Of a DNA stretch of 64,000 nt, positions 1 to 53,374 are shown in pieces (position 1 is the stretch's first letter; the number at the start of each line of letters is the position of its first letter). Source of the stretch: an uncultured Bacilli bacterium (GTDB taxonomy: Bacteria; Bacillota_I; Bacilli_A; RF39; UBA660). Position numbers and translations under genes: made by a program. The stretch spans positions 22,013 through 86,012 of the forward strand of contig CALVIY010000001.1 of NCBI GenBank assembly GCA_944331955.1, written 5' to 3'. The notes beneath the pieces were generated by a model. The model did no database searches. It was not told the origin of the DNA and saw only the letters and a program-made list of their open reading frames with translations.

Positions 1-1
1 G

Positions 2-934
2 GGATTAATAAATATATATGAATATCAGGAGAGTTTTAGAGGAGCAAGTTCATGGACAGGATATTTAAATAATGGACTATATTGGTATACTTTAACATCC
101 ACGTATCTTAGCCCCGCTGTAAATGGTAATCGTTTTGTATCAAATAATGGTTCCGTTTATGTCACTCCAAACGATAGTAATAATCAATTTATCAGACCGT
201 CCTTAAACTTAAAGCCTAATATTAAAATAGTAAGCGGAAATGGTACAATTGATAATCCTTATAGACTTGAAGGAGATAATGATACTAATCTATCCGGAAC
301 ATTATTAAATACCAGATATAGTGGAGAATACATCCGCTTTGGAAACGAAGAGAACAATCTGTATAGAATAGTAAGTCATGAAAATGAAATAGGAACTAAA
401 ATAACTAGTGCAGAACCTTTGAAAGAAAATAGAGAGTTTAAGATATTAAATTTTGATGATAATGGTAATTCAAATTATTCTAGTACTAATACTATAGGAA
501 CATTTCTAAATGGAGAATATTTAACCAACTATGTAGGTAGTGATTATGTTAATATGATAGAAGATAATACTACGTGGTATCTTGGCACAGTTGGAAGAGG
601 TATAAATTATAAATTAGCAAAATATGTAGATACAACTGGTAATACATTAATATCAAGTATAACAACTGCAAAAGTAGGATTACTAAGGTATGGCGAGTTA
701 ATGTCGGGGCAGTTTGATAAGTATAACAATAATAGAAGTTATTGGACTTTAACAAAATCAGATGATTTAACCATTAGGTATGTTGGTAATGATGGAAATT
801 CTAATCAAGTATCTCCTTCTCCCAAAGTTAGTGTTTATAGCATTCGTCCATCCTTAAATTTAAAATCTAATGTCGTAATAACTGGTGGTATAGGAACTAA
901 AAATAATCCGTTCACTATAAAACTTGCTGATTAA
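2..934 (+). CDS. Secreted/surface protein, C-terminal part (5' end lies left of the window); paralog of 48956..50860 with DUF6273-like modules
   Basis: Frame 2 is open from nt 2 (GLINIYEYQESFRGASSWTGYLNN...) and is in frame with the tracked ORF 419..934, so the TTG at 419 is internal. It is colinear with roughly the C-terminal half of the 48956..50860 product (LEGDNDTNLSGTLL, LYRIVSHEN, TIGxFLNGEYLTNYV, TTWYLGTVGRG, AKVGLLR, IRPSLNLK..GT.NNPF). Confidence 0.8.
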   Translation, partial: GLINIYEYQESFRGASSWTGYLNNGLYWYTLTSTYLSPAVNGNRFVSNNGSVYVTPNDSNNQFIRPSLNLKPNIKIVSGNGTIDNPYRLEGDNDTNLSGTLLNTRYSGEYIRFGNEENNLYRIVSHENEIGTKITSAEPLKENREFKILNFDDNGNSNYSSTNTIGTFLNGEYLTNYVGSDYVNMIEDNTTWYLGTVGRGINYKLAKYVDTTGNTLISSITTAKVGLLRYGELMSGQFDKYNNNRSYWTLTKSDDLTIRYVGNDGNSNQVSPSPKVSVYSIRPSLNLKSNVVITGGIGTKNNPFTIKLAD

Positions 935-45977: not shown

Positions 45978-46021
45978 AATAATACCTTAGTTATTTCTAT
46001 TATTAATTTTATATACTTTAT

Positions 46022-46111
46022 ATTAAAGGATATAAAGTAGTAATCCTTAACTATTCTAATGAAAATGTATGGGGTAAATTATTTAATGCTGTTAAAAGTA
46101 AAGAAGTGTAA
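46022..46111 (+). pseudogene. Orphan relic of the last ~27 codons of an ABC-2 permease gene (duplicate of 45057..45147)
   Basis: About 90% nt identity to the 3' end of 43831..45147. It encodes YKVVILNYSNENVWGKLFNAVKSKEV* against YKVGILNYSNEKVWSKLFKAFKSKDV*, with no upstream ORF attached. Confidence 0.8.
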
Positions 46112-46124
46112 TTACCATTAAAAA

Positions 46125-46179
46125 AAGTTATTTCGTTTCGACGAAATAACTTGACAAAAATACTATATAAATATAAAAT
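46125..46179 (+). promoter_or_regulatory. 11-bp perfect inverted repeat overlapping a sigma-A promoter
   Basis: AAGTTATTTCG (46125-46135) and CGAAATAACTT (46142-46152). TTGACA (46151-46156), 17-nt spacer, TAAAAT (46174-46179). Confidence 0.5.
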
Positions 46180-46196
46180 AAAAATAGGTGATAAAG

Positions 46197-47390
46197 ATGT
46201 TAAAAAGAGAAGTTTACTTGTCAAGAATTAGAGGATTTTATGATTCTAATTTAGTGAAAATATTGGTAGGAATAAGAAGATGTGGTAAGTCTGTTATTCT
46301 TAATCAGATAGTAGAAGAAATAAAAGATAAAGGTGTTAATGAAAACCATATTATATATGTTAATTTTGAACTTGTAGAATTTGAAGAGTTACAAGACTAT
46401 AAAAAGTTAAATAAATATATTAAAGATAGTATTAAAGATGATAAAATTTATTATGTATTTTTAGATGAGATACAAAGGGTTGAAAAATTTGAGACAGTTG
46501 TAAATTCGCTACGAGCATCTCTTTCTAATATAAGTATATTTATAACTGGTTCTAATAGTAAGCTTTTATCAAAGGAACTTTCTACTGTTTTATCTGGAAG
46601 GTATGTTTTATTTAATATTTATCCTTTAAGTTATAAAGAATTTACGGAACTATCTTCAAAAGATCCTAATAATGAAGAAACATTTTGGAATTTTGTAAAG
46701 TGGGGAGGACTTCCAAATAGGGTTCAGTTTAATGATGAAATCAATATAAAAGATTATCTTCATAGTGTGTTCGATTCTATTATTTTAAGGGATGTAGTAG
46801 AACGACTAGGACTTAAAGATATAGTTTTATTTAATTTGCTATTACAATATGTTGTTGATACAACAGGAAGAGAATTTTCTGCTGATAATGTTATAAATTT
46901 TTTAAAGACTGAAGGAAGAAGTGTTTCTACTGAAACTTTATATAATTATTTAGATGCTCTATGTAAAGCTTTAATAATTAATAAAATTTATAGATATGAC
47001 ATTCATGGTAAGGCAATATTAAAAACTTTAAATAAGTATTATATGACTGATTTAGGAATAGCACAGATAAAGAATAATAACTTTGAAATAAATAAAAGTT
47101 TTGCTATTGAGAATGTTGTATATAACGAATTATTAGAAAGAGGATATGATGTATATATAGGAAAAACTAAAAAAGGAGAGATAGATTTTATTGCTACTAA
47201 AACGGATGAAAAAATGTATATTCAAGTAGCTTACTTTTTAGATAATGATAAAGTAATTGAAAGAGAGTTTGGTGCTTTTGAAGAATTAAGTGATGATGTA
47301 CCTAAGTATGTTCTTTCTTTAGATAAAGAGAATTTGTCAAGGAATGGAATTATACATAAGAATATAATTGAGTGGTTATTAGAAAAATAA
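46197..47390 (+). CDS. AAA_14/DUF4143-family ATPase with a C-terminal PD-(D/E)xK-like module
   Basis: Walker A GIRRCGKS, Walker B VFLDEIQ; C-terminal GEIDFIA...YIQVAY nuclease-like motif. Confidence 0.7.
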   Translation: MLKREVYLSRIRGFYDSNLVKILVGIRRCGKSVILNQIVEEIKDKGVNENHIIYVNFELVEFEELQDYKKLNKYIKDSIKDDKIYYVFLDEIQRVEKFETVVNSLRASLSNISIFITGSNSKLLSKELSTVLSGRYVLFNIYPLSYKEFTELSSKDPNNEETFWNFVKWGGLPNRVQFNDEINIKDYLHSVFDSIILRDVVERLGLKDIVLFNLLLQYVVDTTGREFSADNVINFLKTEGRSVSTETLYNYLDALCKALIINKIYRYDIHGKAILKTLNKYYMTDLGIAQIKNNNFEINKSFAIENVVYNELLERGYDVYIGKTKKGEIDFIATKTDEKMYIQVAYFLDNDKVIEREFGAFEELSDDVPKYVLSLDKENLSRNGIIHKNIIEWLLEK

Positions 47391-47425
47391 AAGGCAATAT
47401 AATGATTATGTATTGTCTTTTTCTT
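47391..47425 (+). terminator. Rho-independent terminator
   Basis: AAGGCAATA / TATTGTCTT stem (one G.T pair), followed by a T-rich stretch. Confidence 0.6.
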
Positions 47426-47475
47426 TATAATTATTTAATTCTGTGATAAACTAATAGTAGAAAGGTAGTTGACTT

Positions 47476-48390
47476 ATGAAGAGGATTGTTATTATAGGTT
47501 GTGGTAATGTAGGATTAGAATATTTAAAGAAACTGTGTATGACTGATATAGCTCTTGATATAAGCTTAATTGATATAGATCTAGAGAAACTTGAAGGTGA
47601 AATTCTTGATTTAGAACAGTCTTTAGTTTATAGAGATAATAATATTAATATAAAATTAGGTGATTATAGTGATTGTAATGATGCAGATATTGTTGTTATA
47701 ACAGCAGGTGTTTCTCAATCTATAAAGAATAGAATGGATGATTTAGAGAAAGCTAATGAGATAGTAGTTGATATTACTAATAAATTAAGAGATACTACTT
47801 TTAATGGTATTATTTTAGTAGCAAGTAATCCAATGGATGTTATTACAGAACTTATCGCTCATTACTTAGATTATCCTTATAATAAAGTAATAGGTACTGG
47901 ATGTATGCTTGATACAGCAAGATTAAAATCATTAATTAGTAAAAAGATTAAAGTAAAAGCAAATGATATAAATATCTATGTATTAGGAGAACATGGTGAT
48001 AGTCAAGTTGTCGCTTGGAGTAATGCTAATATAGGTTTAGAAAACTTAAGTAGGTTTTTATCACTTGATGAGAAAGAAGAACTAGAAGATAATACTCGTC
48101 ATATGGGTGGTACTATTACTAAAAGAAAAGGTTATACTAGTGATGGAGTTGCAGGATGTCTTTTAGAACTTACATTATGTATTCTTAATGATTTAAAGAA
48201 AGTATATTCTATATCTAATTATAATACTAATTATGATGTATATTTATCTACTCCTTGTATTATAGGTAAAAAAGGAATAGAGAGAGTTATTAATATTAAG
48301 TTAACTAGTGAAGAAGAAGAGCAATTAGAAGAGAGTGCTGAAGTAATTAATGAGGCAATTGATAAAATATTGCCAAAAGAGTTATATTAG
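47476..48390 (+). CDS. ldh: L-lactate dehydrogenase family (LDH/MDH)
   Basis: IVIIGCGNVG, VITAG, ASNPMDV, GTGCMLDTARL, GEHGDSQV motifs. Confidence 0.8.
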   Translation: MKRIVIIGCGNVGLEYLKKLCMTDIALDISLIDIDLEKLEGEILDLEQSLVYRDNNINIKLGDYSDCNDADIVVITAGVSQSIKNRMDDLEKANEIVVDITNKLRDTTFNGIILVASNPMDVITELIAHYLDYPYNKVIGTGCMLDTARLKSLISKKIKVKANDINIYVLGEHGDSQVVAWSNANIGLENLSRFLSLDEKEELEDNTRHMGGTITKRKGYTSDGVAGCLLELTLCILNDLKKVYSISNYNTNYDVYLSTPCIIGKKGIERVINIKLTSEEEEQLEESAEVINEAIDKILPKELY

Positions 48391-48400
48391 GAGGTTAGTT

Positions 48401-48754
48401 ATGGTTAATTATTTATTTTTAGTTATTATATTCTTATTTATGGCAATTGAAGTAGTTAGTGCTTATAAGTTTTTTAGATTTAAAAAGATTAAGTTAGGTA
48501 TATTTTCTACATTTTATTTTCTTATTACATTAATACTTACTTTAAGTTATTTTTCTACTAGAAATGTTTTAATAGAAAATGAATTAGAGAGTCTTATAAA
48601 TGGTATTAGCGAATTTAATTTGTTTGCAATATTAGTTATGTTACTTAATATAGGAATGATTGTAATAAGTACAATTAGTTATGTTAAAGTAATGCAATGG
48701 GGTAGATCTAATAAAGTGGAGAAGAAAAAGAAAAAATCTAATAAAAACTTGTAA
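48401..48754 (+). CDS. Small membrane protein (3-4 TM helices, Lys-rich tail)
   Basis: The ATG at 48401 follows AGGAGG. The tracked upstream start at 48350 overlaps ldh and is unlikely. Confidence 0.55.
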   Translation: MVNYLFLVIIFLFMAIEVVSAYKFFRFKKIKLGIFSTFYFLITLILTLSYFSTRNVLIENELESLINGISEFNLFAILVMLLNIGMIVISTISYVKVMQWGRSNKVEKKKKKSNKNL

Positions 48755-48810
48755 TAGATTTATTAGATATGTTATTATATAGATAATAATAGTAGAAAGA
48801 GGGTAAAAAT

Positions 48811-48858
48811 ATGAGAATGCTATGTTTACAACTTGTTACCTGGGGGGGGGCAGTTTAA
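48811..48858 (+). CDS. Candidate 15-codon leader uORF (MRMLCLQLVTWGGAV) containing the G9 tract
   Basis: The SD AAAGAGGG lies 7 nt upstream of the ATG; the G9 tract encodes W-G-G. Not in the ORF track because it is too short. Confidence 0.3.
   Translation: MRMLCLQLVTWGGAV
48842..48850 (+). repeat. Homopolymeric G9 tract
   Basis: TGGGGGGGGGC; the longest G/C run I noticed in this very AT-rich window. Confidence 0.95.
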
Positions 48859-48891
48859 TAGTAGTTTAGTTACTTTCTTTCATTATGACAT

Positions 48892-48922
48892 AAGAGCAGG
48901 ATAATTATATTCTGTTCTTTTT
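48892..48922 (+). terminator. Candidate leader hairpin/attenuator upstream of 48956
   Basis: 12-bp stem 48892-48903 / 48908-48919 (two G.U pairs) with loop ATTA, running into TTTTT. Confidence 0.4.
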
Positions 48923-48955
48923 AATGTTAGAAAAAAATAGTGGAGGAGTAGAAAA

Positions 48956-50860
48956 ATGAAGAAGAAAGAAAATATTATAATAATTGCAATATTAGTTATT
49001 ATGTTACTAGCAATAATAGGAGTAAGTTATGCAGCATTTAGTTTTAGTCAAACAGGTAGTGTTCCTAACAAGATTACAACAGGATCAATTACTATGACTT
49101 ATGAAGAAAGTGATAATACTATCACTTTAGGTAATGCCTTACCTACAACAGATGCGACAGGGACAACAAGATTAAAAGATGGAGAATACTTTGACTTTAC
49201 AGTTAGTAGTGAAATAACAGGAGAAGTTAATATTAATTATGAAATAAGTGCTAAAGAAGTAGGAGAAGGGACAATAGATGGTTCTAATATTAAGTTATAT
49301 TTAACTAGATTAACAGAAGATGGTGAAGAACAATCTTTAATGACACCTGAAGTATATAATGAAGAGACAACATCTAATAAGTTTACAGGTCGCCCTGCAG
49401 GAGAGATGAGTTTATATACTTCAAGCATGAATAGTAGTGAATCTAATGATTATAGACTTAGAATGTATGTAACTGAAGAATACAACCCTCAAGGAGATGG
49501 AGGAAATTTAACCTTTGCAGTAAAAGTAAATGTATATGGAAAAGATAGAGTAGGAGAAGAAGCATCAAAAGTAATTATAGAAAACTTAAATAGTGGAAGT
49601 ACTTATGATGATGGGTATGATACATTCATAACAGGAGAAGATCCTAATAATTATGTCTGGTATAGTGGAAAATTATGGAGAGCGATTAGTGTAAATAATG
49701 AAGAGAAGACAACTAAGTTAGTAACTCAGTGGAATATAAGCACGATTAATTATGATAATGATAGTAATGTTTTTGAAGGAAGTTATATGGAAGACTGGTT
49801 AAATGATACTACTGTAGATGGTTTCTTAGGGAATTTAAGAGAACCTGAAAAATTTATAGTAATGGATGCAAAGTGGAATGCTACATCAAGTGCTGGGGCA
49901 GCAAGGCCTCCTGAAACAACACTTGTAACAAATACAGTAGGACTACTTAACCTTTATGAATATATAACAAGCTGGAAAGGGACTACACCTTCAAAAGGAT
50001 ATTTAAATAATAAATTTAATTGGTGGACCTTAACGCCATATTCACCTGATTATAGTTATGCTATTACTAGCAGTACATCTACTGGGTATGACAGTAAAAG
50101 TTCAAATGGAGTCCGTCCATCAATAAATTTAAAGCCTAATGTCAAAATTGTAGATGGAGATGGTACAAAAGATAATCCATATAAGCTTGAAGGAGATAAT
50201 GATACTAATTTATCAGGGACTTTACTTTCAGGTAGATACAGTGGAGAGTATGTTCGGTTTGGTAATAATGAAAATAGTTTGTATAGAATAGTAAGTCATG
50301 AAAATGGAACTGGAACAAAGATAGCAAGTGCTGAACCATTAAAAGATTTAGGGACATTTAAGAAGTTAGCTTTTGGTAATGCTACAACATTTTCAAGTGA
50401 AAATACTATAGGAGCATTTTTAAATGGAGAGTATCTAACAAATTATGTAGATAGTGCATATAGAGATATGATAGAAGATAGTACAACTTGGTATTTAGGA
50501 ACAGTAGGTAGAGGTGCATCATACAAATTAGCCAAATATACAGATGAAAATGGTAATATATTAACATCAAGTACAGCAGATGCTAAAGTTGGTTTATTAA
50601 GAGGTGGGGAGTTACTGTCAGGACAATTTACCAATGTTGAAGCTAATTATAATACGAATACTCTCCCAATATATTTTACTTTGACACCGTATGGTATTGA
50701 TGATACCGTTGTATGTATTTATACTTGGTTTGGATATAGTAATTCATGTAATGTTACTTCTTTGAAAGCTATACGCCCAACCCTAAATCTAAAACAAAAC
50801 GTAGTAATAACATCTGGTGATGGTACTAAAAATAATCCCTTTAATCTGTCAATTAATTGA
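48956..50860 (+). CDS. Large secreted protein: TasA/camelysin-like (SipW-type) signal peptide, beta-rich N-domain, two DUF6273-like modules
   Basis: N-terminus MKKKENIIIIAILVIMLLAIIGVSYAAFSFSQTG resembles the G.TYAYFSD-type signal. Two ~200-aa modules each end in WWTLTPY/YFTLTPY ... (V/I)RP(S/T)(I/L)NLK.NV.I..GDGTK.NP(Y/F). Confidence 0.75.
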   Translation: MKKKENIIIIAILVIMLLAIIGVSYAAFSFSQTGSVPNKITTGSITMTYEESDNTITLGNALPTTDATGTTRLKDGEYFDFTVSSEITGEVNINYEISAKEVGEGTIDGSNIKLYLTRLTEDGEEQSLMTPEVYNEETTSNKFTGRPAGEMSLYTSSMNSSESNDYRLRMYVTEEYNPQGDGGNLTFAVKVNVYGKDRVGEEASKVIIENLNSGSTYDDGYDTFITGEDPNNYVWYSGKLWRAISVNNEEKTTKLVTQWNISTINYDNDSNVFEGSYMEDWLNDTTVDGFLGNLREPEKFIVMDAKWNATSSAGAARPPETTLVTNTVGLLNLYEYITSWKGTTPSKGYLNNKFNWWTLTPYSPDYSYAITSSTSTGYDSKSSNGVRPSINLKPNVKIVDGDGTKDNPYKLEGDNDTNLSGTLLSGRYSGEYVRFGNNENSLYRIVSHENGTGTKIASAEPLKDLGTFKKLAFGNATTFSSENTIGAFLNGEYLTNYVDSAYRDMIEDSTTWYLGTVGRGASYKLAKYTDENGNILTSSTADAKVGLLRGGELLSGQFTNVEANYNTNTLPIYFTLTPYGIDDTVVCIYTWFGYSNSCNVTSLKAIRPTLNLKQNVVITSGDGTKNNPFNLSIN

Positions 50861-50871
50861 TACAAAATAAA

Positions 50872-50903
50872 GAAAGTGAGAAACTATTTATTCTCACTTT
50901 TTA
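50872..50903. terminator. Bidirectional terminator between convergent genes
   Basis: GAAAGTGAGAA / TTCTCACTTTT stem flanked by A and T runs. Confidence 0.75.
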
Positions 50904-52238
50904 TAATATTTCATCATCATTTGTTTTTTCTTCAACGTTTATAATTTGGGGTTCTACTTTATTTTCTTCTTCTAATTGTTCTTCTTTTTTAATATCTTCT
51001 TCATATTTAATGCCTCTTATCTTACAATAGATATCTAAATCATCATCAACATCAATAATTTTATATATCTCATCAAAAGAAGTAGAGCCATCTAATACTT
51101 TTAAAAGACCATCTTGTAACATTGTAATAACATCTGATTTATATACTAATTTATTTAAATCATCTTTTTCTAGAGATTCTTCATTTAAAGCATTTCTAAT
51201 CTCATCATTAATCATTAATACTTCTTGAATAGCAATACGTCCATGATAACCGTTATTACACTTATCACAACCTTCAGGATTAGCATTATATATTTCATCA
51301 ACATCTTTATCTAAAGCCATCTTAAAGACCTTTTTTTGATATGGTGTAGTCTTTTCTTTAATACGACAGTGAGGACATATCATTTTAGCAAGCTTTTGTG
51401 AAATAATACCAGATAGGGCACTAGATAATAAATATCTTTCAACGTTCATATCTAGTAATCTTTCAATAGTACTTAAAGAGTTATTAGTATGGATTGTAGA
51501 TAATACTAAGTGACCAGTTATAGATGCTCTAACTGCTATTTTTGCTGTTTCACTATCACGAATTTCTCCTATTAGAATAACATTGGGATCTTGTCTTAAA
51601 ATAGATCTTAAAACAGTTGCAAAGTCTAGTCCTATTTCACTATTAACTTGAACTTGGTTTAATCCTTCTAGATTCATTTCTATTGGATCTTCTACTGTTA
51701 TAATATTAGTTTCTTTCTTATTTAAAACTTGTAAGATAGAGTAAACTGTTGTACTTTTACCAGAACCAGTCGCACCAGTTATTAGAATAATACCATTAGG
51801 TTCAGCGATCATCTTCTTTAACTTTTTAAAATTATCTTCGTTAAAACCAAGAGAGCCTATTCCTTCTAAACTCCTTGAATAATCAAGAATACGGATAACA
51901 CATTTTTCTCCTTCATTTGTAGGTAGAGTAGAAACACGTGTTTCTAAATTAATGCCTTTAATATTTCCTTTAATAGAACCATCTTGTGGTAATCTACTTT
52001 CAGTAATATTCATATTAGCGATAAGTTTAATTCTAGTAATTAAATTTCTTTCATATATTTTAGGTATTTCTGTATAATCTTGTAAATCTCCATCTATTCT
52101 AATTCTAACCATTAAAGAATTTTCTCTTGGATCAAAGTGAATATCACTAGCACCTGCTTTTGAAGCATTGGCAATAATATCATCTACAACATTAACAATA
52201 GGTGTTTTTGTCATATCATACGTTACCAAAAGTATCAA
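50901..52238 (-). CDS. Type II/IV secretion-family ATPase (PilB/GspE/ComGA-like)
   Basis: DIHFDP, Walker A GATGSGKST, Asp box ITVEDPIE, Walker B ILIGEIRD, His box TGHLVLSTIH, tetracysteine CPHC...CDKC. The true start is probably the TTG at 52229 or the ATG at 52214. Confidence 0.85.
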   Translation of the reverse strand: MILLVTYDMTKTPIVNVVDDIIANASKAGASDIHFDPRENSLMVRIRIDGDLQDYTEIPKIYERNLITRIKLIANMNITESRLPQDGSIKGNIKGINLETRVSTLPTNEGEKCVIRILDYSRSLEGIGSLGFNEDNFKKLKKMIAEPNGIILITGATGSGKSTTVYSILQVLNKKETNIITVEDPIEMNLEGLNQVQVNSEIGLDFATVLRSILRQDPNVILIGEIRDSETAKIAVRASITGHLVLSTIHTNNSLSTIERLLDMNVERYLLSSALSGIISQKLAKMICPHCRIKEKTTPYQKKVFKMALDKDVDEIYNANPEGCDKCNNGYHGRIAIQEVLMINDEIRNALNEESLEKDDLNKLVYKSDVITMLQDGLLKVLDGSTSFDEIYKIIDVDDDLDIYCKIRGIKYEEDIKKEEQLEEENKVEPQIINVEEKTNDDEIL

Positions 52239-52316
52239 CCCCTTTACTTTATTCCATTCTTTTACTATAATATATTATATAGTAAGAATAACTTAATTAC
52301 AAGAGGGAGTATAAAA

Positions 52317-52859
52317 ATGAAAGATAAAAAAGTGTTAAATAGAAAAGGTTTTATGTTAGTAGAAACATTAATAGTTGGTGTTTTTATTATGGGAATTTTT
52401 TCTTTACTTTATACTAATTTCTTTCCTCTTATTGGAGAATATGAAAGATATAAGAACTATGATACAGTAGAAGCTACTTATATTGTTCATTGGGCTAGAA
52501 TGATAGCCTTAAAAGGACTTACTGAATCTAGTTATACATCTGCTAGAAGTAAAGGTTATGTTGATATAAGTGATTGTTCTATATATACAAATAATGATTG
52601 GCAAATGTATTGTGAATCTTTTAAGGTTTCTAATAATGTAGAAAAGATATATTTAACAACATATTCAACTACTAAGTTTAAAAACTATATTAAAGATAAT
52701 AGTGCTTTTTCTAGAAGATTTAGAGAATATATTTCTTATTTACCTACTTATAGTAAAAATACTAGTAAAACTCCTGCTAATGGATACTACAGAGTAATTA
52801 TTGAGTATGTTTCTAATAATGATTATAAATATGGAAATATAGAGTTATTTAGAGGTTAG
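52317..52859 (+). CDS. Prepilin-type (class III signal peptide) pilin/pseudopilin
   Basis: NRKG/FMLVETLIVGVFIMGIF: Gly at -1, Glu at +5, hydrophobic helix. Confidence 0.75.
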   Translation: MKDKKVLNRKGFMLVETLIVGVFIMGIFSLLYTNFFPLIGEYERYKNYDTVEATYIVHWARMIALKGLTESSYTSARSKGYVDISDCSIYTNNDWQMYCESFKVSNNVEKIYLTTYSTTKFKNYIKDNSAFSRRFREYISYLPTYSKNTSKTPANGYYRVIIEYVSNNDYKYGNIELFRG

Positions 52860-52867
52860 GTGATCTT

Positions 52868-53374
52868 ATGAATTTAAATAGAAAAGGTATTACATCAGTA
52901 GAGTTATTAGTTAGTTTTATTATTATTTCTACTATTGTTGTTAGTATGTATAATTTAATATTAAATTATCGTAATAGAGAACAGATAGAAGAGATTAATA
53001 ATGAAGTAATCGCTTATAGTAATAATCTTCAAGAAATTATTCAAACTGATTTAATTCAAGGACATTTAGTTGATGTTACTAATGTTAGTAGTACTTTACG
53101 TTCTGCTACTTTATCATTTGATAATCCTAGTAGTTATAAAACTAGTATTAGTATTAGTCCAAGCAGTGGAGTTATTAGTTATGGTAGAAGTGGTGATACT
53201 ATTAGATATGAAATACCTAATATACCTGATTTAACTTTATCTGATGAGTCTAAAATAGAATATTTAGCAGGTAGTAATGGTTATTTAAAGATTACTATTA
53301 TTTTAAATCATCCTAATTTTCCTAATGGGACATATTCTTTTATGATAAATGCTCCTGTTAATTATATATATTAA
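52868..53374 (+). CDS. Prepilin-type pilin/pseudopilin
   Basis: NRKG/ITSVELLVSFIIISTIVV: Gly at -1, Glu at +5. Confidence 0.7.
   Translation: MNLNRKGITSVELLVSFIIISTIVVSMYNLILNYRNREQIEEINNEVIAYSNNLQEIIQTDLIQGHLVDVTNVSSTLRSATLSFDNPSSYKTSISISPSSGVISYGRSGDTIRYEIPNIPDLTLSDESKIEYLAGSNGYLKITIILNHPNFPNGTYSFMINAPVNYIY

Follow-up and report, generated by a model that had tools for sequence, protein, structure and literature searches.

The pil1 and pil3 pilus operons of Streptococcus gallolyticus are controlled by a leader peptide gene that contains GCAGA repeats. The short leader peptide ends 39 bp ahead of a terminator and results in low expression; out-of-frame repeats move the stop to within or after the hairpin and lead to high expression. 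Mutants of the ATG, the stop and the terminator confirmed this mechanism (Danne et al. 2014, PMC3894217). In a full-text literature search, this was the one experimentally proven system with such logic; the search found neither a poly-G version nor a multigene-family version of a pil1/pil3-type switch. In this study, a stretch of 64,000 nucleotides (hereafter the window) was analyzed from an uncultured Bacilli bacterium (GenBank assembly GCA_944331955.1, contig CALVIY010000001.1, positions 22,013 to 86,012). It carries a leader with a run of nine G upstream of a gene for a secreted or surface protein of 634 amino acids (aa). The leader belongs to a repeated cassette, which is probably a dispersed phase-variable leader-peptide attenuator whose reading register is set by DNA slippage.

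The leader and the regulated gene are arranged as follows. Positions are those of the window, G9 stands for a run of nine G, and each register is named after the tract lengths that lead into it.

48749-48778, plus strand: predicted sigma-70-type promoter, with -35 TTGTAA at 48749-48754, an 18-nt spacer and an extended -10 TGtTATTAT at 48770-48778.
48795-48806, plus strand: Shine-Dalgarno (SD) sequence GAAAGAGGGTAA of the leader open reading frame (ORF), which doubles as the 5' strand of the long-range helix P1.
48811-48858, plus strand: leader ORF (upstream ORF, uORF) of 15 codons with ATG at 48811, encoding MRMLCLQLVTWGGAV and a stop; short G9 register.
48842-48850, plus strand: G9 homopolymer inside the uORF, read TGG GGG GGG G; presumed slippage-prone switch.
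48856-48864, plus strand: triple in-frame stop of the G9/G6/G12 register (TAA 48856, TAG 48859, TAG 48862).
48867-48869, plus strand: TAG stop of the G10/G7 register (the second short register), 22 nt ahead of the hairpin.
48870-48881, plus strand: anti-SD box TTACTTTCTTTC, the 3' strand of helix P1, translated in the long register only.
48892-48922, plus strand: intrinsic-terminator-like hairpin and five T's (stem 48892-48903/48908-48919, 12 pairs; loop 48904-48907, 4 nt; T's 48918-48922).
48902-48904, plus strand: TAA stop of the long G8/G11 register, where the terminator 5' arm meets the loop.
48942-48948, plus strand: SD of the regulated gene, GGAGGAG, by direct reading.
48956-50860, plus strand: regulated gene for the 634-aa secreted or surface protein, with an N-terminal signal ending GVSYAAFSFS (SipW/TasA-like) and a DUF6273 module.

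The predicted promoter matches at 9 of 12 positions with the TG present, and would start transcription near 48785. The initial annotation had described a G9 run within a short, SD-preceded uORF beginning at 48811, with a stop at 48856-48858 ahead of a 12-bp hairpin and T run that precede the ribosome-binding site (RBS) of the gene at 48956. Direct reading agrees on each of these elements, and two further in-frame stops were found behind the first. It also bears out the claim that a G8 tract would read on to the TAA at 48902-48904 within the hairpin; the stop expected near 48866 for G10 is placed at the TAG of 48867-48869. Folding gave the hairpin an energy of -12.3 kcal/mol. The region 48300-49100 holds one terminator-like site, at 48892-48919, where shuffled sequences lead one to expect 0.0. 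Like pil1/pil3, the locus thus combines a promoter, an SD, a leader ORF with a slippage-prone repeat, an intrinsic terminator (predicted here) and genes for surface structures; the target of pil1/pil3 is an immunogenic surface structure, and the target here is also of surface type.

The assembly, from an uncultured chicken-gut bacterium, comprises 1.505 Mb in 95 contigs with 27.65% GC. Its G/C runs are bimodal in length (32 of 6, 4 of 7, 4 of 8, 26 of 9 and 4 of 10), and only about 0.05 runs of length 9 are expected by chance according to our own estimate. The earlier remark that a G9 run is striking in a genome this AT-rich was therefore well founded, the run lengths being far above chance. 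After alignment of the flanks, 33 of the 38 runs of at least 7 proved to lie in full copies of one cassette and 2 in partial or variant copies; one of the other three is within a coding region, and two are on mis-binned contigs. These two, a G9 on C87 (44% GC) and a G7 on C94 (66% GC), were rejected as cassettes because they belong to mis-binned foreign DNA. The G9 of C87 sits between a perfect TTGACA-17-TATAAT promoter and the RBS of an unrelated gene, and C94 carries a second mutL-like match.

A profile search of the genome with nhmmer returned 36 full leader copies, one truncated copy (C60) and one divergent prophage variant (C4). Thirty-five of the 36 full copies precede genes for proteins of 450-650 aa, one of them cut by a contig end. 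In most copies, the cassette begins with the promoter TTGAAA-17-TATGATAATAT, which occupies the same place as the promoter of the window locus and is better conserved. The SD reads GAAAGAAGGT in nearly all copies and is followed by an ATG and a variable mini-ORF head. The segment TGTTTACAAnnnGTTACCT stands directly 5' of the G tract; on its 3' side come CAGTTTA(A/G)TAGTA, a spacer, the anti-SD box, the terminator hairpin with its T run, the RBS and the gene. About 50 copies have in common a leader peptide tail of (C/R)LQxVTWGGAV before the stop. The terminator stems differ among sister copies with compensating changes, and their predicted energies range from -7.3 to -16 kcal/mol across 79 copies.

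The frames were read through the tract in 81 copies from 15 genomes, 35 from this genome and 46 from 14 related metagenome-assembled genomes (MAGs); the hairpin, located by folding, was placeable in 79 of them. The SD and ATG of the leader ORF are conserved across the copies, and the tract is 6 to 11 nt long, with G9 in 60 of 81. In the G9/G6/G12 register, a stop lies 5 nt after the tract in all 81 copies and ends 33-45 nt (median 38) before the hairpin in the 79 copies, much as the short pil1/pil3 peptide ends about 39 nt ahead of its terminator; the distance set for a short register of the pil1 type was 28 nt or more. The second register stops at +16 to +18 in 76 of 79 copies, typically 22-27 nt before the hairpin. 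The long register is open for 46-61 nt in all copies, and its stop falls 5 or 10 nt into the hairpin, either on the 5' arm or at the edge of the loop (79/79); a stop within the hairpin is likewise the out-of-frame outcome in pil1/pil3. Spacer length variants preserve this pattern: a 9-nt insertion stays in frame, and in a class whose spacer is 2 nt shorter the long register shifts from G8/G11 to G10/G7 and the phase downstream of the indel is kept. In shuffled sequence, a long frame stays open with a probability of 0.20-0.39 per spacer class and of ~0.006 jointly over four classes; this support is modest because the spacer classes share sequence.

Four cassettes of the assembly are in the long register, namely C1:20895 (G8), C13:24482 (G8), C7:11299 and C47:4373, and the remaining tract-bearing cassettes are in short registers. 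All copies carry a G6-G11 tract but one. In this locked copy (C8:13564-13713), which has an interrupted homopolymer (TGTGGGGGC), the long frame of the leader ORF is fixed; the ORF crosses the entire hairpin and stops just after the T run. The gene behind it encodes a 461-aa coiled-coil protein of cytoplasmic type with no signal peptide. The locked copy agrees with the view that the long frame corresponds to expression.

These features suggest the following mechanism. Transcription from the promoter would yield a leader of ~140 nt; a ribosome would load at the strong SD and translate the mini-ORF with its G tract. With G9 (or G6/G12), it would meet three stops 5 nt past the tract, 33-45 nt before the hairpin; the hairpin would then form, transcription would end and the gene would be OFF. 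With G10/G7, the stop ~16 nt past the tract would release the ribosome 22-27 nt before the hairpin, and the gene would probably be OFF or leaky. With G8/G11, the frame would be open across the anti-SD box and end 5-10 nt within the hairpin. The leading ribosome would block the hairpin behind RNA polymerase, and the surface-protein gene would be transcribed (ON). Slipped-strand mispairing of the G run in replication would shift a lineage between registers. The cassette is most likely a heritable random on/off switch, and the 35 paralogous genes would each switch independently, with most of them staying OFF. The copy in the window, with its G9 tract, is predicted to be OFF; at the consensus level, it is stable.

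The proposed occlusion of the terminator by the ribosome is common to this cassette and pil1/pil3; the two differ in several other respects. The repeat here is a G homopolymer of 6-11 nt, compared with 13-22 GCAGA units in S. gallolyticus. Of the two out-of-frame registers only one is long, so that there are three different states, and three stops in a row close the presumed OFF register. The leader ORF is enclosed by a conserved SD:anti-SD helix of 10-17 bp, and the genome has 36 copies where S. gallolyticus has two. The regulated products are mosaic proteins with SipW-type signals rather than sortase pili, and the systems have no sequence homology.

Poly-G upstream of the tpr genes of Treponema pallidum and poly-C in the Bordetella fim promoters tune promoter activity. 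A poly-G tract upstream of surface-protein genes could here also tune a promoter by altering the spacing of its elements, as it does in those bacteria. However, the tract lies ~64 nt downstream of the predicted -10 hexamer, within a translated frame that has its own SD, and neither between the -35 and -10 elements nor at the transcription start. Its position excludes a promoter-spacing role in our assessment, and we regard this explanation as extremely improbable.

The leader-peptide attenuator calls for tract lengths that change. For a comparison between samples, orthologous loci were retrieved through exact identity of the protein, and tract length was read from the assembly consensus; it differs at two of five loci. 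At the ylbF-like/cotE locus, G10 in this genome is replaced by G9 in three samples as the sole difference in 3,150 aligned nt; a fourth sample has G8, plus 10 single-nucleotide polymorphisms. A fifth locus has G10 here and G9 in six samples. In two different MAGs, identical flanks surround G9 and G11 (L012 and L025), and in one relative the tract is interrupted (GGGGGGAGG). No other site of these regions is as mutable as the tract, whose consensus is usually G9. Contigs of other assemblies often end within the leader or at the G tract (L073, L076, L080, L097). Such ends would be expected if the 36-copy repeat or heterogeneity of the tract breaks assembly graphs.

Several points weigh against a slippage switch. 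The tract of the window locus is G9 here and in 10 other contigs (at least nine samples, three leader/gene alleles). C13:24482 is G8 here and in one other sample, and the C5 locus is G9 here and in one other sample; both are invariant. The dominance of G9 (60/81) possibly reflects a selected fixed length. MutS and MutL are present in the genome. The between-sample differences also leave some room for homopolymer miscalls, because they are taken from assembly consensus, some of it at 3-6x coverage. Finally, the SD:anti-SD helix described below has no double compensatory change, only one-sided changes that preserve pairing. The comparison of tract length across strains that the initial annotation had suggested thus gave a divided answer, with variation at two of five loci, both sisters of the window locus, and G9 in all 11 assemblies at the window locus itself. 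Because of this uniformity, switching at the window locus is something we infer from its sister loci.

The same observations bear on a switch at the RNA level, in which the G9 of the DNA stays fixed. RNA polymerase slippage, or a +1 ribosome shift on GGG GGG, would let some ribosomes enter the long frame and give low, perhaps physiologically tuned expression without any DNA change. The predominance of G9, its invariance at the window locus and the presence of mismatch repair genes are all in keeping with this. In addition, GGG is an infrequent codon (6.7% of those for Gly; 3.85 per 1000), the only tRNA-Gly found is the one with the UCC anticodon (in an incomplete MAG), and judging from the sequence a peptidyl-tRNA-Gly that slips by +1 on G GGG GGG G pairs perfectly again. 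However, samples differ by G8, G9 or G10 in DNA that is otherwise identical, paralogues span G6 to G11, and the A-site codon past the tract (GCA) is neither hungry nor a stop. RNA-level slippage as the switch itself is thus unlikely; it is compatible with DNA slippage and may add leakiness to it.

The DNA-slippage attenuator can also be compared with the poly-G/C loci of Campylobacter jejuni, Neisseria, Haemophilus and Helicobacter. In both cases, tracts of ~8-11 G are strongly over-represented in an AT-rich genome, number ~30 per genome, are linked to surface products and are most commonly G9. In those bacteria, the tract lies in the regulated coding sequence or its promoter, whereas here it lies in a separate leader mini-ORF, would act via a terminator and coexists with mismatch repair. 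Campylobacter is without mismatch repair genes, and its tract instability is of the repair-deficient kind; instability in this genome would be of the Neisseria kind. Missing mismatch repair was considered as the cause of tract instability and was rejected, since both MutS and MutL are present. Slippage would therefore be less free than in Campylobacter.

Compared with shuffled versions of itself, the leader RNA has a better fold (z = -3.87). In both the minimum free energy (MFE) and the consensus folds, the SD at 48795-48806 pairs with 48870-48881 to form helix P1, with a duplex energy of -14.2 kcal/mol. P1 has 17 bp in the window copy and 10 bp in the consensus, and it is kept in 229 of 230 cells. 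Because the changes in it are one-sided only, the SD:anti-SD helix is plausible but unproven. It probably blocks further use of the leader ORF once the first, polymerase-coupled ribosome is past. A trp-like antiterminator was rejected: the anti-SD segment and the 5' arm of the terminator (2:3) form a duplex of only -4.1 kcal/mol, compared with -14.1 kcal/mol for the terminator. The G tract itself pairs weakly, at -8.6 kcal/mol with the anti-SD box and -9.4 kcal/mol with the terminator 3' arm. A hairpin around the G tract in the MFE fold of the window copy was rejected as a family feature, since it uses the variable codon and has no multi-pair equivalent in the consensus.

Direct occlusion by the ribosome is therefore the best description, because no credible antiterminator is present. 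The initial annotation had proposed that tract length sets how far ribosomes travel and whether the terminator forms. This proposal is supported at the family level by the register geometry, by the pil1/pil3 precedent and by the polymorphism of sister loci; a refolding attenuator, which would require an antiterminator, is not. As in the E. coli trp and his attenuators, the cassette encodes a leader peptide, and read-through would be decided by where the ribosome stands with respect to an intrinsic terminator. Unlike them, the cassette has no regulatory codons for a sensed amino acid and no antiterminator helix, and its input would be a heritable change in DNA length, not tRNA charging.

In L090, from another sample, the leader stands upstream of the 649-aa orthologue of C33; the gene is identical, but the 5' half of the leader is different (…GTTAACT G9 CAGTTTAATAG…); this indicates that leaders recombine between paralogues. 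At C60:4341-4402, a leader copy ends exactly at the 3' end of its G9 tract and unrelated sequence follows. The downstream ORF has an N-terminus that by eye resembles the SAM-like domain of tyrosine recombinases/integrases, and a mobile element may have inserted at this tract.

The leader might instead be a structured cis-regulatory RNA (riboswitch-like or protein-bound) or a block of homology for recombination, with the tract and mini-ORF incidental to it. The segment TGTTTACAAnnnGTTACCT and the SD:anti-SD helix are more conserved than the frame logic alone needs, and the z-score of the fold points the same way. Behind the leaders stand genes built as mosaics of N- and C-terminal modules, a recombinant leader occurs in one sample, and one leader is cut at its tract by an element with an integrase-like ORF. 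However, Rfam 15 gave no covariance-model match at E up to 1 (46000-52000), no helix has double compensatory changes, and the tract hairpin depends on a variable codon with no multi-pair equivalent in the consensus. This explanation would also leave the SD and ATG, the triple stop, the in-frame indels and the rule of a stop inside the hairpin unexplained, and we consider it quite improbable.

The paralogous proteins have signal-anchor endings of SYAAF (18 of 35), SYAMF (14), SYAYF (2) or SYAIL (1). We take this motif to resemble the SipW-dependent signal of TasA and camelysin. The genome encodes a SipW-type signal peptidase (96 bits against a cut-off of 52). NCBIfam gave no match for the signal or the N-terminal domain; the SipW-type signal was therefore judged from the motif together with the peptidase. 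The large secreted protein of the initial annotation is the 634-aa ORF with a SipW/TasA-like signal. The C-terminal modules of the paralogues are mosaic and include DUF6273, DUF285/LRR and unknown modules. Homologues in public metagenomes form more than 5,377 clusters at 90% identity, all of them unnamed. Exact-protein look-ups returned nothing on record. An AlphaFold2 model of the 634-aa protein from a 30-sequence alignment was unusable (mean pLDDT 38.9).

The regulated gene is directly followed, at window positions 50901-53374, by the gene for an ATPase of the type II secretion/type IV pilus type (minus strand; T2SSE, E = 3e-120) and by those for two small proteins whose N-termini, KGFMLVETL and RKGITSVELL, resemble those of prepilins. 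The set has the look of genes for a type IV pilus or a competence-like system. The window opens with part of another member of the family:

1-934, plus strand: 3' part of a 645-aa paralogue, whose own leader lies outside the window at C1:20857-20985 and has G8, the predicted ON register.

Immediately before the start of the window, C1:20269-20847 holds a 192-aa ORF with a SipW-like signal (LSYAAFRF) and the N-terminal domain only. The G8 leader and the 645-aa paralogue come next, with no obvious promoter. In such a tandem arrangement, the leader would act as an intergenic attenuator.

The prophage variant at C4:12232-12341 shares the 5' half of the cassette (ATGTTTACAATATGTTAC, then G8; nhmmer E = 3e-5). 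It consists of a mini-ORF with the G tract and then a different hairpin ahead of phage genes. The part 3' of the tract is unrelated to the cassette, and the targets are phage tail proteins. This suggests that host and phage exchanged the switch.

A broader reading would make the cassettes a genome-wide "phasome", with graded registers, OFF leaders that pair in trans and sharing with the prophage; as a whole, it seems rather unlikely. Under it, the three registers would give graded output (OFF, leaky and ON), and a terminated OFF leader would be an abundant RNA of ~140 nt. The 12-nt anti-SD box of such an RNA would be complementary to the SD common to sister leaders. Pairing in trans between such RNAs and other leaders could reduce uORF loading there and favor the expression of few paralogues at a time. 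Exchange of the leader module with the resident prophage would vary tail adhesins, and variation of the host surface and of phage receptor binding would run on one shared device.

An exact-pattern scan of GTDB species representatives was performed and revealed 57 stretches, carried only by MAGs labelled uncultured Tenericutes, uncultured Bacilli, uncultured bacterium or Candidatus Onthousia excrementipullorum. Among 40 relatives searched, the cassette occurs in 9 of 24 genomes of its own genus (this genome counted) and in 0 of 16 genomes of other genera. A scan of metagenome contigs added 5 further loci.

In sum, if the leader-peptide attenuator holds, a small-genome uncultured gut bacterium (one of the Candidatus Onthousia-like Bacilli of chickens) gives ~4-5% of its DNA to 35 surface-protein genes. 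A separate heritable random switch would precede each of these genes, most of which would be silent at any given moment; this would amount to antigenic or adhesive variation on the scale of Campylobacter or Mycoplasma. For metagenomics, the tracts would account for recurrent contig breaks and provide a read-level marker of population heterogeneity. The cassette would be a compact three-state part of ~140 nt, testable in B. subtilis or L. lactis. So far, the sole proof of the mechanism comes from two pilus operons of S. gallolyticus; repeat-slippage leader-peptide attenuation would then be a general, modular solution in Gram-positive gut bacteria.

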